From a virus, in IMG/VR virus record IMGVR_UViG_3300045996_000987: 64,000 nt of DNA. One strand, given 5' to 3'. The notes under the pieces were generated by a model. The model ran no database searches and was not told where the DNA came from. It saw only the letters and a program-made list of their open reading frames with translations. Made by a program: the position numbers and the translations under genes. Positions 1 to 56,525 of this stretch are shown here, one piece after another; within the stretch, counting starts at the first letter, position 1, and every line of letters begins with the position of its first letter.

Positions 1-2537
1 CGGAGGCCCTTCACCGCCGCTCCCACCTCCTCGGCCGAGATACCGTGCTTGAGGAGCAGCGACGTCAACTTGCCGAGGGCCGTCGCGTACGGCCGTAGCT
101 CCTCGTCGCCCTGCTCGTCCACCACGAACGCCTCTACTGGCTGGCTGTCCGCGTTGGTGCCGACGTAGACGTAGACCTTCCGCTCTGAGCCGCTATTCGA
201 GTTCCGGAAGCTCGCCTTGAACATCGAGCCCTGCGTCTCCCGGCCACGGGTCGTGAGGTGCGTGCACGCCGCTTCCGCGAACGTCGCTCTGGCCGCGGCG
301 AGTTCCTTGCGCAGCGAGGAGATCTCGGACGTGGCGGTCCCCAACTCCATCGACAGCCGGTAGATCTCGCCTTCGCTCGTCTGAGGCCGCTCGACGTAGC
401 TCGCCGGACGCGGGTCACCCCACTCGGTTGTACCGCACTCGCAGTAAGCGAACGGCTCTTCCTTCTCGAAGGCGAACGGCTGCTTGCAGTGCTCGCAGTA
501 GGGCCAGTAGGGGATTGTCTTCGGCGTCTCGGGCGCCGGCTTGGCGGCCGGTTCCTCGGTCACCGCGGTGAGCACCTGCGCGTCCCGTGAGCCGTCTCGG
601 TAGACCGTGACACCCTTGCAGCCCGACTGCCACGCCTCCATGTAGATCGCGGCCACATCGGCGGCCGTCGCGTGGCTCGGCAGGTTGAGCGTGCTGGAGA
701 TCGAGTGGTCGATGTGCTCCTGAATGGCCGCCTGCATCTTCACACGGGCGCTCCAGTCGATGTCTGCGCTCGTGACGAAGTAGTCGGGTAGCTGAACGAT
801 CCGCTGGAACTCCTCGAACGTCTTCGGCCCTTCGGGGATGTAAATGTCCTGCCGGAGCCGGACGTCCACGGCACCCTTGTAGGCCAGCGTCAGGTAGCGC
901 GTGATGTTGTCGTTGTAGAGTTCGTAGCTCACCCACGCGTCGCCCTGCGCATCCACGTACTCCGGCGTGACGTTCTCACGCGCCGGGTCCACCTTCCGGC
1001 GGCGCTTCGTCTTGTTGGCGAAGACGGGCTCCACACCCGACGAGCAGTTGAAGGACATGATCGACGTGCTGCCCGTGGGCGCGTTCGTCAGGATCGCCCC
1101 GTTCCGCCGTCCGTTCGCCTGCATGTCGGCATAGAGGGCCGGGTCTTCCACGGCGATGCGCTGGATGAACTCGCACTTCGCATCCACCTTCGGGTCGAAG
1201 AGGGGGAAGGCGCCCCGCTGCTTGGCCAGTTCCACCGACTCCCGGTAGGCGGACAGCTTGAGCGTCCGGTAGATGACACGCGCCATCTCGATACCCTCCT
1301 CCGAGTCGTACCGGATGCCGAGGCGGGCGAGCGTATCCGCGAGGCCGTGCGTGCCGAGGCCGGTGCGACGACCATCGCGGCACTTTGCGAGGAAGCGCGA
1401 GTACAGCAGGTACTCGTCGGAGCCCCGAGCCGACTTGTCCCGGAGCGCGGTCAGCTTTTCCGCTTCGAGATCCACGAGGTCATCCGAGAGGCGCATCGCC
1501 ATCCGGGTGACGTCCTCGAAGCCGGCGACATCGAAGAACGCCTCGGCCGTGAACTCGTTCCGCACGAAGTTCGCGAGGTAGATCGAGATCAGCCGGCACG
1601 AGTCGTACGGGCACAGCGGGATCTCCCCGCACGGGTTGGTCGAAACGACGCCGAAGCCCCGGTAGCCGTTGAGCGGCAGGTTGCGCTCGATCGTGTCCCA
1701 AAACAGCACGCCGGGTTCCGCCGTCGCGCAGGCCGTCTCCGCGATGAGCGTGAAGATCTCGCGAGCGCGCACCGTCCGCGTGATCTTGCACGACTCCACG
1801 AGCGCGTTCACCGGCCAGCGTAGCGTGTACTCCTCGTCGGCCTCAACGGCGCGCATGAAGTCGTCGGTGACCTTCACCGAGACGTTGGCCCCGGTGACCT
1901 TCGAGAGATCCTTCTTCATCTCGATGAACTTCTCGATGTCCGGGTGCCGGACGTCCATCGACAGCATGAGGGCACCGCGGCGTCCACTCTGGCCAACCAT
2001 CCGGGTGACGTGCGAGAAGAACTCCGCGAAGGACCACGCACCCGTGCTCGTGATCGCGGCGTTGTTCACCGGGGCACCGGCCGGACGCAGTTCCGAGAGA
2101 TCGGTGCCGACACCGGCCCGGCGCTTGTAGAGGTTCGCCATGTCCCGAGCGACGTTGAAGATGTCGCTCATGTTGTCCTGCGGCGCGGGGAGCACCTTGC
2201 AGTTGCTCGTGCTCACCAGTTGAAAGGTGTTCCCGATGCCGAACATCGGGCTGCCCTGCGGCACGATCTCCGCGAAGTTGTCGAGGTGCGAGAAGATCTC
2301 CTCTGCGCGCCGCGCGTGCAGGTAGCGCTCCTCGATCCGCGCGAACTCACGGGCCATCCGCCAGTGCATATCCGCAGGCGTGCGCTCGTAGTAAACGCCG
2401 TTCTGGTCACGAAGGGCGTACTTCTCCACGAAGACGTTCGCGGCGAGCGTGGGATTGCTCTGCCCCTGTCGCCCGCCGAAGTACACCTCCGACGCCGCCT
2501 GCACCTCTGCCTTCTCAAAAGTCTCTCGTTCCGTCAT
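1..2537 (-). CDS. nrdJ: Class II (adenosylcobalamin-dependent) ribonucleotide reductase, partial; C-terminus runs off the left edge
   Basis: Continuous minus-strand frame from ATG at 2537..2535 to position 1, absent from the ORF track because it lacks a stop. Translation carries the TNPCGEIPL thiyl-radical motif and a C-terminal Cys cluster. CAAGTAACC plus a GAGGCGAGG RBS lie upstream. Confidence 0.85.
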   Translation of the reverse strand, partial: MTERETFEKAEVQAASEVYFGGRQGQSNPTLAANVFVEKYALRDQNGVYYERTPADMHWRMAREFARIEERYLHARRAEEIFSHLDNFAEIVPQGSPMFGIGNTFQLVSTSNCKVLPAPQDNMSDIFNVARDMANLYKRRAGVGTDLSELRPAGAPVNNAAITSTGAWSFAEFFSHVTRMVGQSGRRGALMLSMDVRHPDIEKFIEMKKDLSKVTGANVSVKVTDDFMRAVEADEEYTLRWPVNALVESCKITRTVRAREIFTLIAETACATAEPGVLFWDTIERNLPLNGYRGFGVVSTNPCGEIPLCPYDSCRLISIYLANFVRNEFTAEAFFDVAGFEDVTRMAMRLSDDLVDLEAEKLTALRDKSARGSDEYLLYSRFLAKCRDGRRTGLGTHGLADTLARLGIRYDSEEGIEMARVIYRTLKLSAYRESVELAKQRGAFPLFDPKVDAKCEFIQRIAVEDPALYADMQANGRRNGAILTNAPTGSTSIMSFNCSSGVEPVFANKTKRRRKVDPARENVTPEYVDAQGDAWVSYELYNDNITRYLTLAYKGAVDVRLRQDIYIPEGPKTFEEFQRIVQLPDYFVTSADIDWSARVKMQAAIQEHIDHSISSTLNLPSHATAADVAAIYMEAWQSGCKGVTVYRDGSRDAQVLTAVTEEPAAKPAPETPKTIPYWPYCEHCKQPFAFEKEEPFAYCECGTTEWGDPRPASYVERPQTSEGEIYRLSMELGTATSEISSLRKELAAARATFAEAACTHLTTRGRETQGSMFKASFRNSNSGSERKVYVYVGTNADSQPVEAFVVDEQGDEELRPYATALGKLTSLLLKHGISAEEVGAAVKGL

Positions 2538-2595
2538 GCCTCGCCTCTGCGGTTACTTGCTCTTCGATTACTCAGCGCACGATGTGCGCACGGTT

Positions 2596-2623
2596 TACCT
2601 CCCGGCAGGCCGTAACTAGGACA
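2596..2623 (-). promoter_or_regulatory. Promoter-like element TGTCCT-N14-GGGAGGTA upstream of nrdJ
   Basis: Reverse complement of tacctccc(2596-2603)...aggaca(2618-2623); same element and spacing as 10 other copies. Confidence 0.4.
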
Positions 2624-2675
2624 GACGAAGGGCGCCGGTTGCCCGACGCCCCCGTTCGTGCCGGACCCCTAAGTC

Positions 2676-3116
2676 CTAGTGAGCCCACATCGGGATCAGT
2701 TGCCCATCGTCTGTCATCACCCGGAGGCTGATCCCAGCCTCGGTGAGCAGCGCCAACCCCTCCGGCGAACGGTACTGCTGGCGGAACACGACGTGCCGGA
2801 CCTTCGAGTTGATGATCGCTTCGGCACACGCCGCGCATGGGCTGTGCGTGACGAACATCATTAGCTCGCCCTCGTGGTAGGGCGCCTTGATGAGCGCGTT
2901 CATCTCGGCATGGAGCTTACACCCACAGTTCCCCGGCTCGTCCCGGAGGCACCCATTCGGGAGCCCCCGAGCGCGGCCGTTGTACCCGACGCTCCATGAG
3001 ATTGTCATCTCCATGTTGGTGATGACCGCCCCGACTTGGAGCCGGGCGCAGGTGCCACGGGTGGCCACCACTTCCGCGATGCACATCCACATCTCGGGCA
3101 GTGAGGGCCGTTCCAT
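2676..3116 (-). CDS. dCMP deaminase (deoxycytidylate deaminase)
   Basis: HAEMNAL and SPCAACA zinc-binding motifs. Start refined to MERPSL (ATG 3116), overlapping the upstream stop as TGATG. Confidence 0.8.
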   Translation of the reverse strand: MERPSLPEMWMCIAEVVATRGTCARLQVGAVITNMEMTISWSVGYNGRARGLPNGCLRDEPGNCGCKLHAEMNALIKAPYHEGELMMFVTHSPCAACAEAIINSKVRHVVFRQQYRSPEGLALLTEAGISLRVMTDDGQLIPMWAH

Positions 3117-3316
3117 CACGCCGGCACCGTGACGGGTCCGGGTCCGGGCATCACCCACAGCGCCTCCTCCTCGTCCTCCTCGATCTCGTCATCGTGGTCC
3201 TCGTCCTGCTCTTCGTCCTCATCCCCGAACAGGGTGGCCGAGAGCACGAAGAGGATGCCAATGACGGCGAGGATGAGCGAGAGGTACGGCGAGGGGCTGT
3301 ACTCCACGAGCCTCAT
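3116..3316 (-). CDS. Small hydrophobic protein with acidic N-terminal half
   Basis: 66-aa ORF: acidic run (DEDEEQDEDHDDEIEEDEEE) then a hydrophobic helix; translationally coupled on both sides. Confidence 0.4.
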   Translation of the reverse strand: MRLVEYSPSPYLSLILAVIGILFVLSATLFGDEDEEQDEDHDDEIEEDEEEALWVMPGPGPVTVPA

Positions 3317-3648
3317 CGCACGGCCCTCAGTCGATCTGCGAGCTTGACGTACGGCACGCGGCCGACGAAGCTCTCGATGACATGCTGGTTGCGGACGAAG
3401 AGCGTCGTGGGGAAGGCCGTGATGCGATACCGGGCCGCCGAGGCGGGACAGGCATCCACGTTCGCCTTAACCACAGCGAAACGGCCGGCGAACTCCTGCG
3501 CGAGCATGTCGAGGGACGGCGCCATCAGCTTGCACGGGCCGCAGTCCGTCTTGTAGAACTCTAGGACGACCACATCGGACGGCAGGCCGAGCAGCAGCGA
3601 CTCAAGGTGGCGGTCGTCCGGGACGTCTATGGCTTTCGCGTTATTCAT
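3313..3648 (-). CDS. trx: Thioredoxin
   Basis: FYKTDCGPCK active site and thioredoxin-fold pattern; CAAGTAACC 6 nt upstream of the ATG. Confidence 0.8.
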   Translation of the reverse strand: MNNAKAIDVPDDRHLESLLLGLPSDVVVLEFYKTDCGPCKLMAPSLDMLAQEFAGRFAVVKANVDACPASAARYRITAFPTTLFVRNQHVIESFVGRVPYVKLADRLRAVR

Positions 3649-3847
3649 CGGGGGTTACTTGTGACATGGCATGCGCCGCATTGACGGTTTCCCGCAGTAG
3701 CTCCAGCGCGTTGCCGATGATCTCGAAGTCGAAGGCCGTGAGGTCTTCGATGCTACGTCCCTGTGACCGGGACTTGCCCACCTTCCGGCGAAGCAGATCA
3801 ATGCGATTGATCGTGCGCTTCACGTCGTGCGTCTCGGAAGCCGGCAT
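3641..3847 (-). CDS. Hypothetical protein
   Basis: 68-aa ORF; CAAGTAATCGAGG upstream of the ATG. Confidence 0.35.
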   Translation of the reverse strand: MPASETHDVKRTINRIDLLRRKVGKSRSQGRSIEDLTAFDFEIIGNALELLRETVNAAHAMSQVTPDE

Positions 3848-3857
3848 TGTACCTCGA

Positions 3858-4340
3858 TTACTTGGGGCGACGCTGCTTGGGCTTCGTCTTTGTAGGCTTT
3901 GGCGTGCGGCGCGGTGGCGGGGAGGGAGACTTCTTCGGTGCGGGCTTCTTGGCCGGTGGGGGCGTAATCGCCGCAGTCGGGGCTTTCACGCGCCAGATGC
4001 CGTCCTTGCCGATCGTGCCGGTCGCGAACCGCTTGGCGTCGGGACCGCGGAGGGTCTGTTTCTTCCGGAATGGGGCCACCGCTTCCGCGCCCACGTAGCC
4101 ATCGAGAAACGAGACGATCACCTCTGTAGGACAGGCGGGATTCCCGCACGGGTACTTGAGATTGCTCACGCCGGGGATGCCGGACGGATTCCGTGTCCAT
4201 CCGCGATGCCCGGCAAGCTCGTGCTCGACCCTCTTGGCCAGCGACGGGATCGAGAAGCAGTGCGGGCAGATGGTCTTTCCGCTGTCTGGCGCATAGGCGC
4301 ACGCGACGCGTTGGACCTTGATCTTCGGGGTGCGTGCCAT
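3858..4340 (-). CDS. Zinc-ribbon protein with Pro/Lys-rich basic tail (histone H1-like), putative DNA binding
   Basis: CPHC...CGNPAC Cys4 motif; C-terminal PPPAKKPAPKKSPSPPPRRTPKPTKTKPKQRRPK. Confidence 0.45.
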   Translation of the reverse strand: MARTPKIKVQRVACAYAPDSGKTICPHCFSIPSLAKRVEHELAGHRGWTRNPSGIPGVSNLKYPCGNPACPTEVIVSFLDGYVGAEAVAPFRKKQTLRGPDAKRFATGTIGKDGIWRVKAPTAAITPPPAKKPAPKKSPSPPPRRTPKPTKTKPKQRRPK

Positions 4341-4395
4341 CGTGCGACGGGGGTGCGGTGGAGCACGCCGTGTGACGTGCCCCGACCGCTCCCGC

Positions 4396-4851
4396 TCAGA
4401 AGGGCAGGCCGGACTTGTTGTCCGCGGACACGCCCGAGGGGCGGTTCACGGGACCACGGCCCGAGCGACGCGCGCCAGAGGGCGCCGACGACGAGGCACC
4501 ACGATCGGACCCACGCGGGGCCGACGCCTCACCGCCCATGGCCTCCTGATACTTCGCGAACGCAGCCTGCGCCATCTCCTCGACGTACTTGACACCGCGC
4601 TCATCACGAGCCTCGGCATCCACGTCATAGGCGGCACGCCAGAAGTCCGAGTATTCCGTCTTCCCGTCCTTCTCGTAGCTGCGGAACGGCGCGGCAACGA
4701 ACACGCCGTTCTTCCCCTCGATCAGCCGCACATCGCGGAACTCGATACCGATCTCGGTATCGACCGTCGTGAAGTAGGCGAGGACATTGCCCTTGCCGTT
4801 CTTCACGGGGCGCATGGCGTACTTACCGGGGAACTGGAAACGCTGGCTCAT
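4396..4851 (-). CDS. SpoVG-like nucleic-acid-binding protein with Gly/Ser/Arg-rich linker and C-terminal ...SGLPF tip
   Basis: RLIEGKNGVFVAAPFRSYEKDGKTEYSDF resembles the SpoVG core; start refined to MSQRF (ATG 4851) with GGAGCAAGTAACA upstream. Confidence 0.4.
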   Translation of the reverse strand: MSQRFQFPGKYAMRPVKNGKGNVLAYFTTVDTEIGIEFRDVRLIEGKNGVFVAAPFRSYEKDGKTEYSDFWRAAYDVDAEARDERGVKYVEEMAQAAFAKYQEAMGGEASAPRGSDRGASSSAPSGARRSGRGPVNRPSGVSADNKSGLPF

Positions 4852-9916: not shown

Positions 9917-10204
9917 TTAGGCACGGGCCGCCCGTTGAACGCGGGGTGGGGGAGGCCCCGACACCCGCGCGTCCGCCATCTCCTGTTCCGAGATTCCGTA
10001 GTAGGCGGCGATCCGGGCCGGGCCGGGGCATTGGTCCGCCCAGCCCCAGTGCCGCATCGAGGCCGCCGCTTCGATGTTTCGCTGGCGGCAGACGCCGCAG
10101 ACGTGCTCGTGGCGGATCTGGCCGTACAGCTTGACCGAGCGGCAGTGCTTGGCCCGCCGCAGTTTGCAGTCGGAGCAGAGGTCTACCTGTCCTTCGGCTA
10201 CCAT
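9917..10204 (-). CDS. Cys-rich zinc-finger protein
   Basis: CSDC...C and CGVC motifs; GGAGG RBS. Confidence 0.4.
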   Translation of the reverse strand: MVAEGQVDLCSDCKLRRAKHCRSVKLYGQIRHEHVCGVCRQRNIEAAASMRHWGWADQCPGPARIAAYYGISEQEMADARVSGPPPPRVQRAARA

Positions 10205-10215
10205 GCGGCCTCCGG

Positions 10216-11358
10216 CTACGTGGATGATCTAGCTACAGGGGATCGTGGTCGTCGGGTCGGTTGGAGTGGCCGAAGACCCCGCCCCGTTACTTGTGGTGCA
10301 AGCGGACGCCCTGCATGAGCGACCTCGCCCGCCCGCGCACTCTGCCGCGCCCGTACAACCTCACGTAGTGCAGGGGAGTAGTCCCGGAGCGGGTCAGCAA
10401 CGAAGGTGCCAGCATCCTCGGCGGCCTGAACCGCAAGCTCGTCCAACGGGGCCAGTGGGCAGAGCGCGCACCGCGTGGGATCGCCTAGCGGGATCTCCCC
10501 GCAGGGGAAGCCGAGAGGCGTCCCACGGTCCCACGGTGTCTGCGGCTCGATGCCGACAGGGATGTGCGGCACCGGCTGCACGCGCGCCGGGGGCGGCCCG
10601 ACGAACGGCCCCTCGTACTGGACTCCCCGCATCGTGTCCGGGTGTGCGCTCGGCGCGAGGGGGATCGTCGCGCCATTCGCCATTACTAGCCGCTGCCCCT
10701 TCACACCCGAGGCGAGGAGGAGGAGGACGGCGAGCGGATCGAGCAGGAAGGCGAGCACCGTGATGACCAGCTTGGCCAGCCCGTCCTGCGTCGTGCCGAA
10801 GAGATCCGCGGCGAACCGTAGCTCCCCGATGTCCTGCTCGGCCGTGATCTGCGAGCGCCGGAGGGTCGATAGCTCCGTGCGCTTCTCCGTGATGGTGGCC
10901 GAGAGCCGGTCGATCTCGGGCTGCACCGTGGCGAGCATCCGCCGCCGGTTCGTGCCCTGTGCCGCCGGGATGGACTCCACCTGCCGGAGCAGGCGGTCCC
11001 GATCAGCCTCGATCGCGGTGATCTCCGAGGCCACGATCTCGATGGTGCCGGCCCCGGTCACGGCCGTCGTGCGGCCCTGATCGTATGCCCGGCCGAGGTA
11101 CCCGTAGATCCCGAGCGACGAGATCCCGACGAGGCAGAGCAGGCCCACGGTGAGCAGGAGCGGGACGAGCCGGACCCGGAAGTTCTGGATCAGATGGAGG
11201 GTGATCGCGACCTTCGCCGTCTCGAAGGCGATGGCCATGACGAGGATGGACAGCCCGGCCCCGGCGAAGAGGTGGACAAGCCCCGTCGCGGAGAAGTAGA
11301 GCGAGATGCCAGCAAGGAAGAGCCCCGAGAGGAGGGGCAGATTGCGGAGGTGTCTCAC
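10216..11358 (-). CDS. Membrane protein with coiled-coil segment
   Basis: N-terminal and central hydrophobic helices plus a heptad-like region; the C-terminal part is low complexity, so the true stop is uncertain. Confidence 0.35.
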   Translation of the reverse strand: MRHLRNLPLLSGLFLAGISLYFSATGLVHLFAGAGLSILVMAIAFETAKVAITLHLIQNFRVRLVPLLLTVGLLCLVGISSLGIYGYLGRAYDQGRTTAVTGAGTIEIVASEITAIEADRDRLLRQVESIPAAQGTNRRRMLATVQPEIDRLSATITEKRTELSTLRRSQITAEQDIGELRFAADLFGTTQDGLAKLVITVLAFLLDPLAVLLLLASGVKGQRLVMANGATIPLAPSAHPDTMRGVQYEGPFVGPPPARVQPVPHIPVGIEPQTPWDRGTPLGFPCGEIPLGDPTRCALCPLAPLDELAVQAAEDAGTFVADPLRDYSPALREVVRARQSARAGEVAHAGRPLAPQVTGRGLRPLQPTRRPRSPVARSST

Positions 11359-12067: not shown

Positions 12068-14302
12068 CTACTCGGACTCGGATCGTCCCTGCTTCTGTCG
12101 CCGGGCTTCCCATGCTCGGCGGGCGCCCTCAGCACGGGCAGGAGACATGACGGTCTTCCCGTCCCGTTTCTTCTGGCGCCACTTCCTCATATAGTCGGTG
12201 GCGTCTTCGCGCCGCCGCTCGTGGTGGGGCGCTTGCGGTTCCTTGTAGACCCCGCGGAGCTTGGCGACTTCCACGCGGGAGAGGTTTCGCAGGGCAACGG
12301 TCACCTTGCTAATTCCCCTCCGAGTGGACCCAACGGTCATTGCTTGCACCGCGAGGGGTTTTCCCGTTCCACAAACGCAAGGGCTCTCGAAGCAGGAGGG
12401 GCACACCTCCGTGGCGCGAACGCCGAGTTGGAGTGCCCGCTGATCGAGAGCGAACTGCTTTTTCTCCTCGCGCGTCATGTTCCGGCAGACGACGCTGTGA
12501 GGGGTGTTCGGGAAGTGCCGGAGCCAGATGTGAAGCTGATAGGGGCGGCCGTGGGAGCGGTCCTTCGGGTCGAACTGGATGTCGATCCGGCGCACCCAGT
12601 ACCCGATGATCCGGAGCTTGTCTTCGAGCGGGGAGTGCTCCCACGCTTCCAGCACCTCCGACGTCTCATCAAGGATCTCCTCGATCATCTGCCAGTCGTC
12701 GGTCGAGCGCATCGACGCCGACTCGGCATCCTTCACAGCCTCCTGCGCCGCCTGTAGCTCGACGCCCAACCGGGCCAGCCCGTCCCGGTGCATCTGCTTC
12801 GAGAACTCGTCCGGGGTCCGGTCGATCTCGTCGGCCTTCGCGCGTGCCGATTCGAGGATGGCCTTGACCTTGGCCTTCGCCTTCTCGACCGAGTTCTCAG
12901 ACGCCTCGACGTTGTTGACGGCCTCCTCGTAGAGCGCCTTCATGGCCAGTCCCCACGCCGGGCCGGTGCGGAACTTTTTCAGTTCGTCACGGACGGCGCA
13001 CTCCACGGACCAGCCATCGACGTGATACTCACGGCAGCCGAGCGCCTTCTGCCGCTCCCGCATCTCCTGCTTCTCGCGGTTGTAGGTGCGCGAGCGGTGC
13101 TTGTACTCGGCCGACCCGTACTGGAGAAAGTGGCCTTCCTTCCCGTTCGGCTTCCGGGTGCGGGCCGTGTAGAGGCAGCCGCAGTCCGCGCAGAACATGA
13201 TGTTCGAGAGGACACGGGCCGAGTACGGCTCCGGCCGCTTCCGGCGCTGTTGGTCCCGGCGCTCCATCTCGTCCTGCACCTTCTGCCAGAGCGAAAGGGG
13301 CACCATCGGTTCCCAGTTCGCGTCGTACCATTCCTTCTCCTGCACCTTCCGCCCGCCGTAGGGCACCTTCCCGATCAGCACCTTATTGGTGAGAACCGCC
13401 CGCACCCCCCGCGTGTCCCATAGCTCGTTGTTGTGCGAGTTCCGGTAGCCTGACTTGTTCATCAACTCCACGAGCCGGGGGAACGACCAGTGGCGCAGGA
13501 AGGCCGGGGCCAGTGTGTCGGTCCAGAACGCGATTTTCTCGTCGTGCGGCTGGAGGATGGTCGAGTTCTTCTGGCCGTAGTCGCCGGGGAGCGTCTTCAC
13601 CTCACCGAAGTCGTCGGTGTACTTCTCGCCCGTCGAGTCGCGGAGCGGCACCTTCCGGCGGGTGCAGAAGCGCACCGTACCGAACGGCGCCCGCGAGTAG
13701 ACCCAGTACCCGAGCTTGGCCCAGTCCTGCTTCCCCCGCGACGTGTCGAGCGTGAGGTTGGCCGACGTCTCACCGGCCTGCCGGATGGCCATCTGGAACG
13801 TGAAGTCATCGACTTCATCGAAGCCGGTATCGGCCACACCATTGACAAAGCGCGGCAGCCAGCCCGCCTCCCACAACTGGAGATAGACGAGCGCCGCCTT
13901 CCGGGCCTCAACGATTAGCTCGTCGTTCTTCCCCTTCCGAACCGGACGAGCGAAGCGCGACGGGTGATTGATCCGGATGTGGCACTTGTTCTCCCGTGGC
14001 TGCGGATTGGCGAGGCAGAAGGCTACCATCCGCTCGAACTGCGGGCGGTCCCACTTCCGGCCGGACATCTTGTCCCCGTAGTGCGTGGGGATCTCCGTGC
14101 CCGGAATGGTCAGCGGCACCTCGCCCCACTTCCGGTAGATCTCGTTGTGCTGCTGTGGAATGGAATGCGACTGGTTCGTCGCCTCCGCGCGAGACGACGA
14201 TCGAGCGTACACGAGGGACGTGCCCGGAGGCACGCGGAGCCCGCGGGCGGGGGTGAGCCCACCGACGAGCACCTTGAGATCGGGTCTGGCGGGTGAGGTC
14301 AT
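12068..14302 (-). CDS. Large serine recombinase (phage integrase type)
   Basis: SLVYARSSS...Q...DRPQFERM resolvase catalytic motifs, a long recombinase domain, a CADCGC zinc ribbon and a coiled-coil. Start refined to MTSPARP (ATG 14302) with GGTAACCCAA-ATG upstream. Confidence 0.8.
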   Translation of the reverse strand: MTSPARPDLKVLVGGLTPARGLRVPPGTSLVYARSSSRAEATNQSHSIPQQHNEIYRKWGEVPLTIPGTEIPTHYGDKMSGRKWDRPQFERMVAFCLANPQPRENKCHIRINHPSRFARPVRKGKNDELIVEARKAALVYLQLWEAGWLPRFVNGVADTGFDEVDDFTFQMAIRQAGETSANLTLDTSRGKQDWAKLGYWVYSRAPFGTVRFCTRRKVPLRDSTGEKYTDDFGEVKTLPGDYGQKNSTILQPHDEKIAFWTDTLAPAFLRHWSFPRLVELMNKSGYRNSHNNELWDTRGVRAVLTNKVLIGKVPYGGRKVQEKEWYDANWEPMVPLSLWQKVQDEMERRDQQRRKRPEPYSARVLSNIMFCADCGCLYTARTRKPNGKEGHFLQYGSAEYKHRSRTYNREKQEMRERQKALGCREYHVDGWSVECAVRDELKKFRTGPAWGLAMKALYEEAVNNVEASENSVEKAKAKVKAILESARAKADEIDRTPDEFSKQMHRDGLARLGVELQAAQEAVKDAESASMRSTDDWQMIEEILDETSEVLEAWEHSPLEDKLRIIGYWVRRIDIQFDPKDRSHGRPYQLHIWLRHFPNTPHSVVCRNMTREEKKQFALDQRALQLGVRATEVCPSCFESPCVCGTGKPLAVQAMTVGSTRRGISKVTVALRNLSRVEVAKLRGVYKEPQAPHHERRREDATDYMRKWRQKKRDGKTVMSPARAEGARRAWEARRQKQGRSESE

Positions 14303-14307
14303 TTGGG

Positions 14308-14490
14308 TTACCGGGTGATCCTTCGCTTGAAGGCGGTGAAGCACACCTCAATGTACTTCCGGAAGACTAGCGCCTCGTCTTCGTCCTTGTAGCGCTCTGC
14401 GATCCACGCCTTCGCGCGGGCTCGCATCTCCTCCGTGTACGGAGGAAGTGCCACCGGCATACTACTCATACGCGCACGCCGGTCAAGCAC
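14308..14490 (-). CDS. Hypothetical protein
   Basis: 60-aa ORF, likely starting at MSSMPV. Confidence 0.3.
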   Translation of the reverse strand: MLDRRARMSSMPVALPPYTEEMRARAKAWIAERYKDEDEALVFRKYIEVCFTAFKRRITR

Positions 14491-18470: not shown

Positions 18471-18510
18471 GAAGGGCTCCCCAAGTCAGCCTCAACTTAG
18501 GGAGCCCTTC
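18471..18510 (-). terminator. Terminator hairpin after gene 18555..19115
   Basis: GAAGGGCTCCC...GGGAGCCCTTC 11-bp stem. Confidence 0.45.
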
Positions 18511-25092: not shown

Positions 25093-26268
25093 TCAATCAA
25101 TCAGGCGAAGGGGCATGATAAGATTCACGCTGCCCGCGATGCCCACCGGCTCCACGAGCGCCGCGCGCTCCGGGGCCTTGAAGCTCATGCTCACGGCCGC
25201 CGTCGTCAGGACCGCGAGCGTGTCCAGCACGTACTGCCCGTTGAAGCCGATGGTCATCGGCTCGCCGGAGTAGAGAACGTCCATCTCCATCTTCGCATCG
25301 CCCTTGTCGGGCGTGCTCGCCTCGGCCACGAGCAGACCGGGCTTGAGCGTGAACTTGATGCGGTGCGTCTGATCGCTGGCCACCGCGACGATCGGCTTCA
25401 CCCGCTTGATGAACGCCTCGCGCTCCACGATGAGCGTGCGGTCGTTGTCCCTCGGGATCACCTGCGCGTAGTTCGGGTACGGCCCCTCGATGAGCCGGGC
25501 GATGATCTCGCCGCCCTCGAAGACGATCTTGAGGTGCGTCCGGTGCGTGTCGCCCTTCGTCTGCTTCCGCTCCGGCGTGACCGTGAGCGTGAGCTTCCCG
25601 CTCGTGTCCTTGCCGAGCGCCTTGACGAGCAGCTTGAAGACGGTCGGCGGGATGATGAGGTCGGGCAGCTTCTCGTCCCCCTTCACGCGCTTCGAGCAGC
25701 GGAGCGCCATGATGTGCCCGTTCGTGCCCACGGCGCGGATCTCCTGCTCGCGCTCCGAGTAGTGCACGTAGAGGCCGTTCAGGATCGGGCGGCTCTCCTC
25801 CTCGGAGACGCACTCCATCGCGGGGAGCACGAGGCCGAGCAACCGCGAGGCGGGGCCGCTCCACGCCTTGTCCGTCGTCTCCCACTGGAACGTCGGGAAC
25901 TCATCCACCGGGAGACTGAGGAGCCGCGAGCGGATGCCGTCGCGCTCCACCTCGACCTTCGGATTTCCGCCTTCGGTATCGGCCGGGATCAGCGCGAGCG
26001 CCACGGTGGCACCCTTCTCGGCCTTGCCCTTCAAGATCTCCCGAAGATCCTTGAGGGGGACCAGCACGTCGCCGTCCGCCGTCGCCTTGGCATCGGGGAG
26101 GACGAGGGTGGTCATGTTGTCGAGATCGGTCGTGGTGATGGTGACGCGCCCGTCGCGTGCCGTGAACTTGGCGTAGGTGAGCACGGGGAGCGTCGCGCGG
26201 CGGGGGCAGGAGAGGGCGGCGACAGCGAGGATCTGCGTGAGGCTGGCGCGGCTCGTCGTGATACGCAT
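25093..26268 (-). CDS. dnaN: DNA polymerase III beta sliding clamp
   Basis: Aligns along the full length with E. coli DnaN: ATLPVL, TTTDLD, SRLLSLPVDEFP, NGLYVHYSE...AVGTNGH, GPYPNYAQVIPRD, DVLYSGEPMTIGFNGQYVLDTL, MPLRL. Confidence 0.85.
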   Translation of the reverse strand: MRITTSRASLTQILAVAALSCPRRATLPVLTYAKFTARDGRVTITTTDLDNMTTLVLPDAKATADGDVLVPLKDLREILKGKAEKGATVALALIPADTEGGNPKVEVERDGIRSRLLSLPVDEFPTFQWETTDKAWSGPASRLLGLVLPAMECVSEEESRPILNGLYVHYSEREQEIRAVGTNGHIMALRCSKRVKGDEKLPDLIIPPTVFKLLVKALGKDTSGKLTLTVTPERKQTKGDTHRTHLKIVFEGGEIIARLIEGPYPNYAQVIPRDNDRTLIVEREAFIKRVKPIVAVASDQTHRIKFTLKPGLLVAEASTPDKGDAKMEMDVLYSGEPMTIGFNGQYVLDTLAVLTTAAVSMSFKAPERAALVEPVGIAGSVNLIMPLRLID

Positions 26269-32926: not shown

Positions 32927-33688
32927 TCAGGCCGCGCGCCGGGCAGTCGCGATGCGGGCCATCATCTCTTCGCGCCACTCCAGCGCGAAGTCGAGCGAGT
33001 TCTGGAGGTTCGTCTGGTCGTCCGTGCTATGGTACTCCCGGCGAACACGCCGCGCTTGGAAGCTCCACGCGAGGCTGTCGCTCGATGCGAGGAAGGGGGC
33101 CGCACTGATGAGGCCCGTGACCTTGAAGCCGAAGCCGTGCAGCTTGAGCCCATGCGCCTTGAGTGTGCGGATGATGTACTGGCCCGAGAACTCCTGCTGT
33201 CGGCGGCAGACCGTGCCGACCCCGACGAGTGGGTAGGTACGAAGATCCACGCCGGCCGCTGTGTACATGTCGATGTGCCGCTCGTGGTCGCCGTGCATCG
33301 ACCATCCTTGTAGGACCGGGATGAACGGTAGCTCGGGCGCAAGATTGCGGAGACAGAGGAAGTTGTCCACGCTCCTCCGCTGGTGCTCCTCGACCGTGAG
33401 CTTCGTCTTGGCCAGCATGTCAGGCTCGCACATCCAGTCCTGCGGGGCGGCCCATGCCATCTTGCCGATCTCGTCCCGGAATCGGCGCACGAGGCGGACG
33501 TACTCGCGGGGGTCCAGCCGCCACTCCCCATACATCGAGAGTTCGCTGAATCCCCCGCTATCCAAAGCCCATCGGCCGAGCGCCCGAGGGAACGTCTTCC
33601 TCCGTTCCAACTGGCGCCGGCTGATGAACAACGGTACGTCGGTCCTCGCCAGCCACGGGACTACGTGGGTGCCGAGGTAGAACTTCAT
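32927..33688 (-). CDS. dpdA: 7-deazaguanine DNA transglycosylase (TGT family, DpdA-like)
   Basis: ALDSGGFSELSM matches the TGT LTDSGGFQVFSL catalytic segment. Further TGT-like segments FYLGTH, AAPQDWMCEP, IPVLQGWS, PLVGVGTV and SSDSLAWS. Short (253 aa) with no Zn subdomain, as in phage DpdA. Confidence 0.7.
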   Translation of the reverse strand: MKFYLGTHVVPWLARTDVPLFISRRQLERRKTFPRALGRWALDSGGFSELSMYGEWRLDPREYVRLVRRFRDEIGKMAWAAPQDWMCEPDMLAKTKLTVEEHQRRSVDNFLCLRNLAPELPFIPVLQGWSMHGDHERHIDMYTAAGVDLRTYPLVGVGTVCRRQQEFSGQYIIRTLKAHGLKLHGFGFKVTGLISAAPFLASSDSLAWSFQARRVRREYHSTDDQTNLQNSLDFALEWREEMMARIATARRAA

Positions 33689-34320
33689 GCGTCCCCGTGG
33701 TACTTGCAGTCGGGGAAGTCGCAGGCAGGGTCAGCCGGGGCGAACCCGTAAGGGCAGGCGCGCGTGTTGGCGCGAGTCGTGATGAAGTCGTCCATCTGCG
33801 GGTCACTCCCCCGCCCGCAGGCACCGCAGGGCTCGCGCTTGTTGCCCCATCCGGAGCACTCCAAGCAGGCCCCGTTGTCGTACTCCTCCTCGCCGTCGAT
33901 CGCTGCGTCGGTGATAACCTCGACGCCGGGAGCGCCGTGCGCGTTCACCGTGAGCTTGAAGCACACGAAGTCTTCGCTCGTGTCCGGGTTGTCCCGAATC
34001 TCGCGGGCCTTGGCCAGCAGCGCCGCGTCGTTCTCGAACGGTCCCTCCAGTGCGGGCTCGCTGTACTCCAGCCACACGAGGTAGGGCGTGTCCGCGATCC
34101 TCGTGATGGCGTAATGCGGCTCCTCGTCAGCGCTGCTCGCCATGCGGAGCGCCTTCGACTTCTCCGCACAGTCCTCGCAAGCATCGAACTCCATCGGGGC
34201 GGCCCGCTCGTCCGTGCTGCGGAAGTGATAGACCGCGGGCTTGCCGCAGTCCTTGTTCTCTCCGGGGTTGGGCCATCCGCAAGTGCAGATGCGGATGCCT
34301 GCGCCGCTATACTTGGCCAT
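33685..34320 (-). CDS. Cys-rich hypothetical protein
   Basis: Many CxxC pairs (CTCG, CEDC, CLEC, CGAC). Confidence 0.4.
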   Translation of the reverse strand: MAKYSGAGIRICTCGWPNPGENKDCGKPAVYHFRSTDERAAPMEFDACEDCAEKSKALRMASSADEEPHYAITRIADTPYLVWLEYSEPALEGPFENDAALLAKAREIRDNPDTSEDFVCFKLTVNAHGAPGVEVITDAAIDGEEEYDNGACLECSGWGNKREPCGACGRGSDPQMDDFITTRANTRACPYGFAPADPACDFPDCKYHGDA

Positions 34321-42657: not shown

Positions 42658-43077
42658 TTAGCAGCCCATGCGGCGCTCGGACTCCGCGATCAGGTCGGGC
42701 GGCTCGTACTCGGCCACCTGCCGGACCATATCGACCTTGCCCGTGCCGTTGCACGTCGTGCATGTGACGTCGTAGTTACCCGCCATCATGCCCTCGAATG
42801 CCTCGAAGTCCTCTGCGATGTCGCTCGACGTCCAGACGGAGCACGCGGGGTGCACGCGGCGGCCCTCGCCGTTGCAGTCGTCGCAGATGACCCACTCGCG
42901 AATGCCCTTCGAGCGAAGGTGACGGTTGTGCTGGCGGTGGCACGAGGCCGCGGTGCAGATGAGCCGCTTCGTGCCGTGCTCGCAGCGGGTGAGGTAGTCG
43001 TCGTGCTCGCGGTCCTCGTCCTTCTCCGGGGGAAGCTCGTGCTTCTCCCCGCAGTAGAAGCAGTTGGCGTCTGCCAT
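42658..43077 (-). CDS. Cys-rich zinc-finger protein (DnaJ-type CxxCxGxG repeat)
   Basis: CFYCGEKH, CTAASCH, CDDCNGEG and CTTCNGTGKV motifs; start MADANCF. Confidence 0.4.
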   Translation of the reverse strand: MADANCFYCGEKHELPPEKDEDREHDDYLTRCEHGTKRLICTAASCHRQHNRHLRSKGIREWVICDDCNGEGRRVHPACSVWTSSDIAEDFEAFEGMMAGNYDVTCTTCNGTGKVDMVRQVAEYEPPDLIAESERRMGC

Positions 43078-43106
43078 GGGCGTTACTGGCCAGTAAGGGT
43101 GGAGGG

Positions 43107-43478
43107 TCAGATGATCGCGCCCTTCTGCACGAGCCGGGCGATCAGGTCGCACTTCTTCCAGTACGGCATCGCGACGAACTTCTCGCGATTCGCGTCGTTC
43201 AGCTTGCCCGGCTTGCCGTCGCTGCCCAGCAGCATGTCGATGCGGGCATCGTAGAACGTCTCCATCGCCCAGCCGATGCGCTTGCGAAACGCGGACTCGC
43301 TGATGTCCGTGGCCTTGGCCGGAAGGGGCTCACGGTTGTCGCCCCCGCACGAGCGGCACATACCGTACCCATAGTCGAACGGGTACGGCTCCTGCCCAAA
43401 GACCGTGTTCTCGTCGGCGTTGTTGCGCACGCCGCCGCCACAGCAGGAGCAGGATAGGATGTCGTCCACGATGTGCAT
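43107..43478 (-). CDS. Cys-rich hypothetical protein
   Basis: CSCCGGG and CRSCGG motifs; start MHIVDD. Confidence 0.35.
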   Translation of the reverse strand: MHIVDDILSCSCCGGGVRNNADENTVFGQEPYPFDYGYGMCRSCGGDNREPLPAKATDISESAFRKRIGWAMETFYDARIDMLLGSDGKPGKLNDANREKFVAMPYWKKCDLIARLVQKGAII

Positions 43479-44984: not shown

Positions 44985-45047
44985 ACGGTTACCTCCTACG
45001 GGTTACTTGGATGGGACACGCAGCCTTACTGGGAGTAAGGCTGACAG

Positions 45048-45134
45048 GGGACGAGGCACGAATCGAACGTGCGCCTCCGCGAGAACACGCATTACTGAGC
45101 GAGTCGCGGCGCTCTGCCACTGAGCTACCCGTCC
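45048..45134 (-). tRNA. tRNA-like gene with oversized (21-23 nt) anticodon loop
   Basis: Minus strand. Acceptor GGACGGG/CTCGTCC, D-arm GCTCAGTGGCAGAGC, T-arm GCACGTTCGATTCGTGC; the anticodon stem CCGCG/CGCGG encloses ACTCGCTCAGTAATGCGTGTTCT. Confidence 0.35.
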
Positions 45135-48445: not shown

Positions 48446-49800
48446 TCGCTTGCGACACTGGCGCGCATCGCTCCGAAACGATGCGGAACCTTGCTGCCGT
48501 TACTGGCCAGTAAGGACCGAACCTATCGCGCCGTGACGGTCGCCCGTCACTTGGCATGCGTTCCACAATCCCGGCCCGACGCAATCCCTTGTGTTGAGAC
48601 TGCCGGAATCACTGGCGAATTCCCCGTGTCACGCCCTGTCACGGCCCGGATTCATCGCCCGATATTCCACCGCTCTTGCTTCCCGCATACTTGGCCCCAT
48701 GGCGTCCGGCCGTCGCGACGTTTCACAACGTTGCCCGGATTGCGTCCGCCATTGCCTAGACCGCATTCCCCGCGATGCACTCGGCTCGCTCTTGCGGTCA
48801 CTCGCTCCACCCGGCGCCATTCTGGCGAACCTTCCGCCCGCAACCCGCGGGTTGCGTTTGAACCTCTGGCACCTTGCCCGTTTCCCTTCCCGCCCTTTGG
48901 GGTCCACCGTCCGGTCGCATCCTTTCGGGATTCCATCCCCGGCCCCATCGGGCACGGTGGCGGAATCCGTTTCGGCGCTCCGGCGGGGCCGCTTCCCGAT
49001 CCGGGGAAGCGGCACGCCCCATTGGCGCGGTGTGCCTTTCGGCACTATGTCAATCAGCATGTGGTCCGGGGCCGATACGTTGCGCATGCTTGCCGCTTGC
49101 CGCTTGTCGCGCGCCTATCGGAATGCCGTCCGCCATTCTGTGCCGTACCGTGCGCCACACGTTCGCTTGCCGCTTGCCGCTTGTCCGTGTGTCCTACGCA
49201 ACCCGCCCGCTTGCTCGTGCATCGGAGTTGCCGCCGGTACGTGCCGGTCTTCCTTACTGCCGGTAACGTTGCGTTACCGTATCCGACCCGCTTGTGTCGG
49301 TCGCGCCACGCGTTGCGCACCGGCCGGGTTGTCTTTTCTGCCCGCCGCTTTCCTTCCGACCCCTCCGCATAAGCCCTTTTACGAATGCGGCCATTTTCCC
49401 AAACCCCCCATTTGCACCGACTTACAGCGCTCGATTTGCCATGCGCAAAACGCGAATGCCCCCGGTTGCCCCCATCGTCCTCGAAGTAACTGAGGACATC
49501 ACGGGAGTAACCGGGGACAACGTGTAAGTACCCGAGAAGTACAGGCTTAAACTCAGTGAATCCGACGAAAACGACCCCTTACGCACCCCCTTCGCGTACG
49601 TATGGGGTAGCTCTCGATCAACTCATGGCCATCTCTTCGCGCTTCCTATATAGGAAAAGACGGGATCGACGTTGGAGTAGGTGATGGGGGCCGAAAAGGG
49701 TGCGGGGCCGCTGAGGGCAGTGGGCCGAAAGTGTCCTATACGGCGTAATCGAGAGGTATCAGGTACCGAGTACCAAGTAACCGATCCTCAAGTAACCGCT
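48446..49800. promoter_or_regulatory. Non-coding divergent control region between the leftward and rightward gene blocks
   Basis: No credible ORF (only Arg/Pro-rich noise frames). Contains GCTTGCC direct repeats, hairpin CCGCTTCCCG...CGGGGAAGCGG, AT-rich palindrome TTCCTATATAGGAA (about 49641-49654), GGGCCGAAA(A)G direct repeats and promoter-like element A at 49732-49758. Confidence 0.5.
49732..49758 (+). promoter_or_regulatory. Promoter-like element TGTCCT-N13-GAGAGGTA, followed by two CAAGTAACC copies
   Basis: tgtcct(49732-37) and gagaggta(49751-58), then accaagtaacc...tcaagtaaccgctc-GTG. Confidence 0.45.
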
Positions 49801-49801
49801 C

Positions 49802-54950: not shown

Positions 54951-55024
54951 GTCCTTCTAGCTCAACTGGTTAGAGCAGCGGACTCTTAATCCGCAGGTTC
55001 TCGGTTCGATCCCGAGGGGGGACA
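54951..55024 (+). tRNA. tRNA-Lys(CTT): tRNA-Lys (anticodon CTT)
   Basis: Cloverleaf: acceptor GTCCTTC/GGGGGAC with two G-U pairs, D-arm GCTCAACTGGTTAGAGC, anticodon loop CTCTTAA, T-arm CTCGGTTCGATCCCGAG. Confidence 0.65.
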
Positions 55025-55166
55025 TAGGTACGGATGCAGTCGGGCCGCGGGAGTACAACATCGGGGGTGTGCGCAAGCACGAGTCGTTCCCCGTCAACGC
55101 TCCGGGTTCCGTAACTTCCGTACCGCTCGATCGAGTGGAAAGACCGGCGAAGACCCGGTACGGACA

Positions 55167-55200
55167 GGCTCCGTTCGTCTAGTCAGATAGGACGCCACTC
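55167..55200 (+). pseudogene. Diverged duplicate of the 5' half of tRNA-Glu (no 3' partner)
   Basis: GGCTCCGTTCGTCTAGTCAGATAGGACGCC shares CCGTTCGTCTA with tRNA-Glu at 55427; no complementary acceptor or T-arm follows. Confidence 0.3.
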
Positions 55201-55426
55201 ACGGCAGGTGTTGGTAGCAGGTGCGGGGCTCGCTTCATGGCGAAGCAATGCGAGGCCACAACCGTCCCGAGGCCCTAAGTTCCCACTGGTAGCTCAGTGG
55301 GCGACCTCCTTCTTAGGGTGTTCCCTCTACTCTTGGAGCGCGAACTAGGTCGCCACTGTGGTCGTAAGCGGGTAGCCTCGGAGTGTCTTGTCTTGGACAG
55401 CCCGCTCGTCGCAGGTGTCAGGTGAA

Positions 55427-55498
55427 GGCCCGTTCGTCTATCGGTTAGGACGCTACCCTTTCAAGGTGGAGAGACGAGTTCGACTCTCGTACGGGCTA
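55427..55498 (+). tRNA. tRNA-Glu(TTC): tRNA-Glu (anticodon TTC)
   Basis: Acceptor GGCCCGT/ACGGGCT, D-arm GTCTATCGGTTAGGAC, anticodon loop CTTTCAA, T-arm ACGAGTTCGACTCTCGT. Confidence 0.7.
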
Positions 55499-55938
55499 CT
55501 GCTCTTCGCTGTAACTTGAAGGGACTTAGGGAAGTGTAGGACCAGTACCGGGGCCGACATGGCATCGACTGGTATGTGACACGGAACGTCGAAGTGCGCC
55601 GAGGGACTTCATCTCGCCTCGTAAATCACGGGTGGACAAAACACAAATGCCAGCGATAACCTCGCGGCAGCGGATCGGCTTCTGGCCGAAGTTCTTGGCG
55701 GCGTAGCCGTCGAGAACCCCCACTTCGCAGCGGTCTAACGACCCTCGTAGCGGGTGACGCAACCCTGACGGACTCCGATACAGTCAGGGGCCTTGCATCG
55801 GGCGACACCGGGAGAGACTGGGGGTCTTGTCAGTGTCCCTTACCACGACTGACGACGGTTGGCTCGCTCGCCACGGGACCGTAACACCCGAAGGAGCTAC
55901 GCGCGCTGAACAAGACTGAACGACGATCATATCAACAC

Positions 55939-55963
55939 GGGAGTTCGATTCTCCCCGGCTCCA
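55939..55963 (+). ncRNA. Orphan tRNA 3'-end-like sequence (T-arm, acceptor 3' strand, CCA) ending a roughly 430-nt non-coding stretch
   Basis: GGGAGTTCGATTCTCCCCGGCTCCA; no matching 5' acceptor or D-arm upstream. Confidence 0.3.
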
Positions 55964-56181
55964 CTTGCTCCACGAGGTCACCATGCAGGTCATGTATCCA
56001 CGGACGCGAGTAACCGTACCGACAATGGAAGACGTGAAGAAGACGTGGGCGAGCCTACGTCATCGTGTGAAGTACGCGGTGAGCAAGACCTACCGTGAGC
56101 AGTTGGAACGGGAACGCGCAGAGCAGCGCGTGCGGGCCATGATGTACCTGCGGACGCCACCCGTCGTATAGCTCGCGGTAC

Positions 56182-56267
56182 GCCGGGGTATCCAAGAGGC
56201 CAAAGGGTGCTGACTGTAAATCAGCCGGGCGCCACGCCCTTCGTAGGTTCGACCCCTACCCCCGGCA
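56182..56267 (+). tRNA. tRNA-Tyr(GTA): tRNA-Tyr (anticodon GTA)
   Basis: Acceptor GCCGGGG/CCCCGGC, anticodon loop CTGTAAA, long variable arm, T-arm GTAGGTTCGACCCCTAC. Confidence 0.7.
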
Positions 56268-56274
56268 CTGTGCT

Positions 56275-56358
56275 GCTCGGATGGCGAAACTGGTAAACGC
56301 GCCAGACTTAGGATCTGGTGGGCGAAAGCCCCTGTCGGTTCGAGTCCGACTCTGAGCA
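56275..56358 (+). tRNA. tRNA-Leu(TAG): tRNA-Leu (anticodon TAG)
   Basis: Acceptor GCTCGGA/TCTGAGC, anticodon loop CTTAGGA, long variable arm, T-arm GTCGGTTCGAGTCCGAC. Confidence 0.7.
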
Positions 56359-56525
56359 TGTTGTCGCGTTTCCCCTGACAGGACGGGCGGTTAGTCATCA
56401 ACCAATATTGTCTGTCGCCGGTAGTTCGGAAATGCTCTCGTTTGATGGGGCGCGCTTGTAGAGGTGCTTAAACGCCGAAACCCCCAAAGGCACCCGTAGA
56501 TGAGCGACGGGGCCGACTACCAATG

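Follow-up and report, generated by a model that had tools for sequence, protein, structure and literature searches.

Near the middle of a 64,000-nt stretch of viral DNA (IMG/VR record IMGVR_UViG_3300045996_000987, called the window below) lies an intact, full-length open reading frame (ORF) of 253 amino acids (aa) for a member of the DpdA family of guanine transglycosylases (32927-33688, minus strand; Table 1). The window makes up nearly all of a 66,269-nt JGI metagenome contig, the one contig on which the identical protein (P0001) was found, and this contig is itself part of a genome. An earlier note on this DNA had read the protein as DpdA-like, with sequence blocks like those of tRNA-guanine transglycosylase (TGT), and had proposed profile searches as a check; these bear the reading out, with Pfam PF23859 (DpdA) matching at E=1.2e-75 and 254.7 bits against a cutoff of 27, residues 2-246 covering profile positions 4-253 of 291, and PHROG 1279 matching at E=9e-83. 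Gene call and family assignment both hold. At GCATGA the ATG shares bases with the stop of the gene upstream; a GGGGA motif precedes it, and the N-termini of homologues agree with this start. No minus-strand terminator was predicted near the gene, which places it within a long operon, where it is predicted to be translationally coupled.

For comparison, a census of related loci was assembled from 80 of 237 IMG/VR matches, 80 of 434 reference-genome matches and several metagenomic and phage loci, giving 168 loci with the window; those from reference genomes are mostly of Streptomyces, Amycolatopsis, Nocardia, Kribbella, Solirubrobacterales, Sorangium, Planctomycetota and Acidobacteriota. The upstream gene, for a Cys-rich protein, is probably co-translated with DpdA. 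This protein has no Pfam or PADLOC match and no homologue adjoining DpdA in the 167 other loci, and it was rejected as a DpdA partner for its lack of recurrence and of any domain match. None of the other window neighbours recurs beside DpdA in those loci either, which does not support the idea that unrecognised partners sit among the small genes nearby. The upstream protein and a second small Cys-rich protein, encoded at 42658-43152 on the minus strand, carry DnaJ-like CxxCxGxG motifs, and neither has a significant family match.

An AlphaFold model of the DpdA protein, built from 41 sequences, is confident (pLDDT 92.6, pTM 0.90) and folds as a (beta/alpha)8 barrel; in structure it comes closest to TGT or DpdA enzymes, the top Foldseek match being the TGT of Z. 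mobilis (E=5e-6, TM ~0.55). By sequence the family stands apart: no PDB chain was detected by phmmer or by the 41-sequence family profile, no PADLOC defence model matched, the Pfam TGT family PF01702 gave no match at E up to 1, and PHROG 887 matched weakly (E=1.5e-4). The catalytic segment that had been named as TGT-like is present as described: residues 41-52 read ALDSGGFSELSM, and hhalign of the family profile places the block on ILTDSGGFQVFSL of E. coli TGT, although weakly (E=0.06). Within it ALDSGGF is aligned to TDSGGF, the block as a whole to TDSGGFQVFSL of E. coli TGT, and the DSGGF block is the only one that hhalign aligned. D43 and S44 are invariant in all 168 loci and F47 is found in 165; the full set of residues that are invariant in 168/168 loci and kept in the window protein comprises D43, S44, D84, E88, Q127, G128, G158, C161, R162, H184, G187, K189, D204, S205 and W208. 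Family membership, fold and the intactness of the conserved residues are established by these comparisons.

Roles for these residues can be proposed from the bacterial DpdA of Salmonella Montevideo (bDpdA), in which D95 is the acid/base, F99 provides stacking, D130 and H181 meet the Watson-Crick edge and D256 is the nucleophile (PMC10164549). The presumed counterparts in the window protein are D43, F47, D84, Q127 and D204 respectively, D43 being supported by alignment and the others by their order along the barrel. D204 lies in the last beta strand of the model, which spans residues 202-205, and the protein ends 49 residues beyond it, with no Cys cluster of the CxCxxC...H kind that marks the TGT zinc subdomain.

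Table 1. Features of the window and of related loci, with positions in the numbering of the stretch named
Feature	Position	Strand	Basis
DpdA-family (PF23859) guanine transglycosylase gene, 253 aa	32927..33688	-	Pfam PF23859, PHROG 1279
D43-S-G-G-F47 block; presumed general acid/base Asp and base-stacking Phe (cf. bDpdA D95/F99, E. coli TGT D89)	33548..33562	-	conservation, hhalign; roles from PMC10164549
PQDWMCEP block with D84 and E88; D84 presumed guanine Watson-Crick-edge contact (cf. bDpdA D130)	33422..33445	-	D84, E88 invariant 168/168
VLQGW block (Q127-G128); TGT-like Gln versus H181 in bDpdA (presumed equivalence)	33302..33316	-	Q127, G128 invariant 168/168
SSDSLAWS block, last beta strand; D204 presumed covalent nucleophile (cf. 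bDpdA D256)	33062..33085	-	D204, S205, W208 invariant 168/168; role presumed from PMC10164549
C-terminal loop YHSTDDQTNLQNS, replacing Cys/His 'C..H..CxNC' knuckle	32996..33034	-	comparison of 168 loci
Cys-rich 211-aa gene upstream of DpdA, stop overlapping DpdA start (ATGA)	33685..34320	-	sequence
Ribonucleotide reductase (RNR) large subunit, runs off window	1-2537	-	Pfam/PHROGs
dCMP deaminase	2676-3158	-	Pfam/PHROGs
Beta clamp	25093-26268		Pfam/PHROGs
88-nt 'tRNA-Glu(CTC)'	45047-45134	-	ARAGORN only; not confirmed by Rfam at gathering threshold
tRNA/tmRNA (transfer-messenger RNA) cluster: tRNA-Lys(CTT), tRNA-Glu(TTC), 417-nt tmRNA, tRNA-Tyr(GTA), tRNA-Leu(TAG)	54951-56359	+	ARAGORN, Rfam
YhhQ/Vut_1 gene abutting DpdA start, related loci	L029 9532-10050; L100 9456-10004; L118 9435-10001; L161 9369-9944; ~40 other loci		

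The TGT-like fold raises the question of the substrate. Under the legacy annotation of the family, 'queuine tRNA-ribosyltransferase', the enzyme would act on G34 of tRNAs with GUN anticodons, including the phage's own tRNA-Tyr(GUA). We consider this quite unlikely, as there is no PF01702 match and the short C-terminal stretch after the nucleophile leaves out the zinc subdomain and Ins8, which lie along the RNA in TGT structures. The clade is moreover co-located with DNA methylases and Mom and not with QueA, QueG or QueF, and the cluster B1 mycobacteriophages hold the gene among tail genes, unlinked to tRNA genes. A protein-modifying enzyme like Cap10 of type IV CBASS (cyclic-oligonucleotide-based antiphage signalling system), in which a deazaguanine is conjugated to protein, is extremely improbable: the match is weaker than that to DpdA or TGT, the window holds no CD-NTase or Cap9-like (QueC-like) gene and its DpdA has no PADLOC match, and a relative (locus L006) stands among DNA methylases and Mom.

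At its C-terminus the window protein departs from most of its relatives, and this is its single unusual feature. A [C/H]..H..CxNC knuckle is near-universal in this region, with at least two Cys in 164 of the 168 loci, whereas the window protein has a loop without Cys. The knuckle region is without Cys in just four loci, namely the window, L010 (protein P0003), L078 and the truncated L086, and likewise in the protein P0002. Two of these, P0002 (65% identity) and P0003/L010 (61%), are the closest relatives of the window DpdA. The knuckle is therefore near-universal and not invariant, and the window protein is a variant member of the clade. Although the loop is the part of the model with the lowest pLDDT, it is conserved between the window and L010/P0003 (T-D-[DE]...LQNS.DFA), which favours selection over drift, and the window DpdA, P0002 and P0003/L010 look like a stable zinc-less sublineage and not a case of decay.

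If loss of the zinc knuckle had instead destabilised the enzyme, the gene could be a decaying or inactive relic that is passively carried, a view that fits the presence of the knuckle in 164 of 168 loci and the lack of supply genes within the window. We judge it very unlikely, given that the ORF is intact and full length with every family-invariant residue retained, that the replacement loop is conserved with L010/P0003, that the model is confident without a metal site, and that the gene appears to be translationally coupled in a long operon.

Comparison with deposited phages places the protein in a specific part of the DpdA landscape. It is 47% identical to gp20 of phage Orion over 258 columns (E=3e-79) and 47-52% identical to ~400 mycobacteriophage genes annotated 'queuine tRNA-ribosyltransferase' or 'DpdA-like', and on this similarity it belongs to the Orion-type, or Mycobacterium-type, 'singleton DpdA' cluster (PF23859). 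The earlier note had likened it to phage DpdA; it is not of the experimentally validated kind, as there is no detectable similarity to gp2 of phage Rosebush and the clade to which the protein belongs has one tested member, which was negative. The family is large, with ~400 deposited phage genomes, 237 IMG/VR contigs, 434 reference-genome sites and ~5,200 proteins.

A DpdA without the pathway for its substrate, as singled out in the note, is not unusual. DpdA-only phages, which have no genes for preQ0 or G+, formed the largest group (76 phages) in Hutinet 2019 (PMC6884629), and some 400 phage genomes and 5,200 proteins of the PF23859 family can be counted now; a DpdA without nearby 7-deazaguanine synthesis genes is a published, common situation, and there is nothing new in that. 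The same study proposed that such phages might draw on host preQ0 or on imported precursors, reported that other DpdAs expressed alone in E. coli insert host-made preQ0 into DNA, found the Q genes to be absent from Mycobacterium, and raised functional divergence of the singleton-cluster proteins as a question (PMC6884629). A 2023 follow-up left the matter of solo DpdA unresolved, and no later paper resolving the function was found in the literature.

Within the window, searches by homology, hidden Markov model (HMM), Pfam and Rfam agree with the statement that preQ0 biosynthesis genes are lacking. Rosebush FolE, QueD, QueE and QueC (locus L001) gave nothing below E=0.05 against the six-frame translation (tblastn, phmmer --max), and HMMs of QueC/D/E and FolE, iterated on Que genes from related loci, together with a YhhQ HMM, found no match among all six-frame ORFs of at least 50 aa. 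Pfam recognised no QueC, PTPS, radical SAM, GTP cyclohydrolase I, QueF or Vut_1 and no ParB_N, DndB or DUF6884 domain among the 98 predicted proteins, and no Rfam preQ1 riboswitch was found in the window. Rosebush ParB has a weak tblastn match at 63.6 kb (E=0.03), in an ORF without a Pfam match. The missing pathway is real for this fragment and typical of the clade.

How much this absence says about the phage depends on how much of the phage is in hand. The window holds ~99 genes, fewer than the roughly 115 counted before, and as far as 48.4 kb nearly all of them run on the minus strand. The functions identified are RNR large subunit, thioredoxin, dCMP deaminase, clamp, clamp loader, RusA, 5'-3' exonuclease, endonuclease VII and NUDIX, along with a serine recombinase, four tRNAs and a tmRNA. 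Pfam and PHROGs found no terminase, portal, capsid, tail, DNA polymerase, primase or helicase in the window, so it must be a partial genome, and it looks like the early or non-structural arm of a much larger, highly divergent phage genome. The absence of Que genes therefore stands but is weak evidence about the whole genome, and it is reasonable to suppose, as the note did, that the enzyme relies on host precursors or on genes beyond the window. When 55 kb of the window was compared with deposited phages by megablast, only a ~100-nt stretch inside DpdA matched, the clamp is at most 29% identical to phage proteins, and a 758-aa ORF at 12068-14344 has no phage homologue; judged by such comparisons, the phage is very distant from anything cultured.

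The relatives are more informative about supply. Dereplication of the census at 90% identity left 139 DpdA clusters, for which features were counted within 10 kb of DpdA. Que genes are present in 4 of the 139 (3%), a YhhQ/Vut_1 importer in 37 (27%), a DNA methylase or Mom in 24 (17%), and none of these in 81 (58%); the classes overlap, since 7 methylase/Mom clusters also have YhhQ or Que genes. Mom counts are from non-iterated searches, an iterated 'Mom' profile having been discarded after it drifted onto out-of-frame ORFs overlapping DpdA. A precursor source, either Que or YhhQ, is thus encoded in 41 of the 139 clusters, and the two never occur together at one locus.

The Que-linked loci, verified with Pfam, are QueE-QueD-QueC-DpdA (L013), QueC-QueD-DpdA (L042), QueC-DpdA-Mom-methylases (L006) and a full Rosebush-type cluster plus a PF23859 DpdA (L082). 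The DpdA proteins of Que-operon-linked relatives are 50-60% identical to that of the window, which at 55% is closer to the L013 protein than to Orion gp20 (47%). In a neighbour-joining tree, which is star-like, unsupported and indicative only, Que-linked members are scattered among the singletons, and the window pairs with L010 next to a sister group that includes the YhhQ-linked L019 and L029. The YhhQ gene (PF02592 Vut_1, the preQ0-transporter family) usually ends exactly at the DpdA start codon, and such YhhQ-DpdA pairs are found in prophages, conjugative elements and viral contigs of Streptomyces, Amycolatopsis, Sorangium and others. No description of this two-gene module for the PF23859 clade was found in the literature searched; the supply logic itself has precedent in the bacterial dpdAB islands, of which 27% have de novo synthesis versus 9% with YhhQ (PMC11888242). 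A DarB-like antirestriction gene lies near DpdA in phage Phrappuccino.

Two further observations concern the contexts of relatives. In several loci of Streptomyces and of viruses (L100, L101, L107, L018, L021, L032), an RNA ligase gene (PF09414) stands ~0.7-1.4 kb upstream of DpdA, before the YhhQ-DpdA pair, which hints at a possible RNA connection. On the chromosome of Streptomyces sp. V1I6 (L008), the homologue is part of an element with FtsK/SpoIIIE, RepSA, NUDIX and DUF2637 genes that looks like an actinomycete integrative conjugative element, so the PF23859 family is not restricted to phages.

Taken together, we favour the reading, at a probability of roughly 0.55, that the window gene encodes an active DNA guanine transglycosylase whose 7-deazaguanine base would be supplied by the host or by the unseen part of the genome, and which would otherwise be idle. 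The enzyme would be a minimal, single TIM-barrel (~250 aa) nucleic-acid guanine transglycosylase of the Orion type (PF23859), and catalytically competent. By analogy with bacterial DpdA and TGT, D204 would attack a deoxyguanosine of duplex DNA at C1', with D43 donating a proton to the departing guanine, and a covalent enzyme-DNA intermediate would result; preQ0 or a closely related 7-deazaguanine, as the free base, would then attack with D43 acting as base, leaving the modified base in the DNA. Phage DNA would be expected to become partly resistant to restriction. The enzyme would make no precursor, and the base would come from a host that makes it de novo or imports it, or from genes on the part of the genome not sequenced; lacking this supply it would be idle, as Orion apparently is on M. 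smegmatis. While the lack of supply genes in the window and the linkage of relatives to such genes are observed here, we infer that the target is DNA, which base is put in and that the modification serves against restriction. The alternate coupling to Que or YhhQ, the methylases, Mom and antirestriction gene nearby and the invariant catalytic residues make one enzyme with a variable source of base the most economical reading.

Several points weigh against this. Virion DNA of Orion, the only tested member of the clade, is without dPreQ0, dADG, dG+, dPreQ1 and dQ (PMC6884629), and no demonstrated activity of any PF23859 member was found in the literature. The window protein has no detectable sequence similarity to the validated DpdAs and is without the Cys/His knuckle that is present in 98% of its relatives. 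More than half of the clusters (81/139) are in the same class as the window, with no supply gene, and only a partial genome is in hand.

Some of these points can also be taken to mean that the enzyme is active but diverged, swapping guanine for a base other than the known 7-deazaguanines, or working only as a guanine-exchange enzyme or glycosylase on host or phage DNA, for example in anti-defence or host takeover, with no need of preQ0. The possibility was raised explicitly for the singleton cluster in Hutinet 2019 (PMC6884629), and it would accommodate the retention of the gene by ~400 mycobacteriophage genomes even though Orion DNA has none of the five deazaguanines assayed for and the pathway is missing from M. 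smegmatis, as well as the invariance of the catalytic residues even in loci without a supply gene and the 58% of clusters with none of Que, YhhQ or methylase/Mom. Against it, members with linked Que or YhhQ genes are mixed with unlinked ones in the tree and have all the invariant residues in common with them, giving no sign of a separate specificity class; the window DpdA is nearer to a Que-linked protein than to Orion gp20; and the hosts of most loci may supply preQ0. We regard divergence as unlikely. A narrower version concerns the knuckle-less sublineage (window, P0002, P0003/L010), which has no Que or YhhQ gene in any known context and might have moved away from preQ0 to insert another base into DNA or to carry out base exchange against host nucleic acid. 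This is speculative and very improbable; if true, it would also explain how singletons of the Orion type are maintained where the host makes no 7-deazaguanine.

The preferred reading, that of a DNA-modifying enzyme fed from elsewhere, bears on a wider problem. The role of solo DpdA is an acknowledged open question (Hutinet 2019), sharpest where hosts such as mycobacteria cannot make preQ0. Being an incomplete genome from an uncultured phage, the window makes this question no more testable. The census does sharpen it, by showing one clade that is coupled to QueC/D/E (3%) or to YhhQ (27%), never to both, with invariant catalytic residues, a combination that favours an outsourced precursor for the same enzyme over functional divergence.

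Other features of the window lie apart from the DpdA gene (Table 1). The tmRNA matches Rfam RF00023 at 69.9 bits, and its predicted tag of 29 aa ends in ...PHFAAV versus the usual ...ALAA, which is atypical. The 88-nt tRNA-Glu(CTC) could be spurious, or a tRNA of unusual form. The nucleotide-metabolism set also takes in the thioredoxin, NUDIX, clamp loader, the large serine recombinase and a DUF7007 protein. Transcription switches from minus to plus across a 1.3-kb non-coding region (48446-49801), within which a perfect 21-nt direct repeat, GCTTGCCGCTTGCCGCTTGTC, occurs at 49088 and 49165. A strong hairpin at 18471-18510 (16-nt arms, 94% complementary, 8-nt loop) occupies a 1-kb gap between the genes at 17477 and 18555.

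Among known systems, the bacterial and archaeosine TGTs are ~14% identical to the window DpdA, with no match of the window protein to PF01702; their zinc subdomain and C-terminal RNA-binding parts are absent from it. Salmonella Montevideo bDpdA (PDB 7ui4), the DNA preQ0 insertase of the Dpd restriction-modification system, is 11% identical and goes undetected by phmmer, the family profile and PADLOC. It has His181 and a 128-residue Ins8, whereas the window protein has Gln at the former position and no Ins8, and the partners of bDpdA, DpdB (a ParB-like ATPase) and DpdC, are not in the window, as is also true of the dpdD-K neighbours.

The Rosebush/9g/CAjan-type DpdAs, which are experimentally linked to dPreQ0 or dG+, have in common with the window DpdA the presumed reaction and the fact of being phage-encoded. 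Rosebush gp2, a mycobacteriophage DpdA tied experimentally to 28% dPreQ0, shows no significant BLASTP match to it (E=0.3); gp2 is a protein of 385 aa in a ParB-DpdA-QueC-QueD-QueE-FolE cluster, whereas the window DpdA stands without such a cluster (FolE/QueD/QueE/QueC or Gat-QueC). There were no Escherichia phages among the 406 tblastn matches of the window DpdA. Rosebush gp2 (L001, 789-1946) has no Pfam-A match at E up to 0.01, so the Pfam 'DpdA' family represents the untested singleton lineage and not the validated one. One IMG/VR contig (L082) carries a Rosebush-type ParB-DpdA-QueC-QueD-QueE-FolE cluster at 504-4762 and, 5 kb away, a PF23859 DpdA at 10001-10753 followed by Mom; the two types are thus distinct, unrelated lineages present in one genome.

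The Orion-type singletons (group 3 of Hutinet 2019: Orion gp20, Phipps gp20 and Chris gp42; PF23859) are far closer, being members of the same family of ~250-290 aa at 47-52% identity, with the same invariant residues, no Que genes beside them and variable, 'moron-like' contexts. They differ in that all four mycobacteriophage and Streptomyces-phage representatives keep the C..H..CxNC knuckle that the window DpdA is without, and in that their genes are carried by siphoviruses of cluster B1 or K, whereas the window DpdA is carried by an uncultured, very divergent large phage. In the YhhQ-DpdA and Que-DpdA modules of prophages, conjugative elements and metagenomic phages, the importer or QueC/D/E lies directly upstream, in the place where the window has a Cys-rich soluble protein and no supply gene; these modules belong to the same clade, and their DpdA proteins are 50-60% identical to that of the window and have its invariant residues in common.
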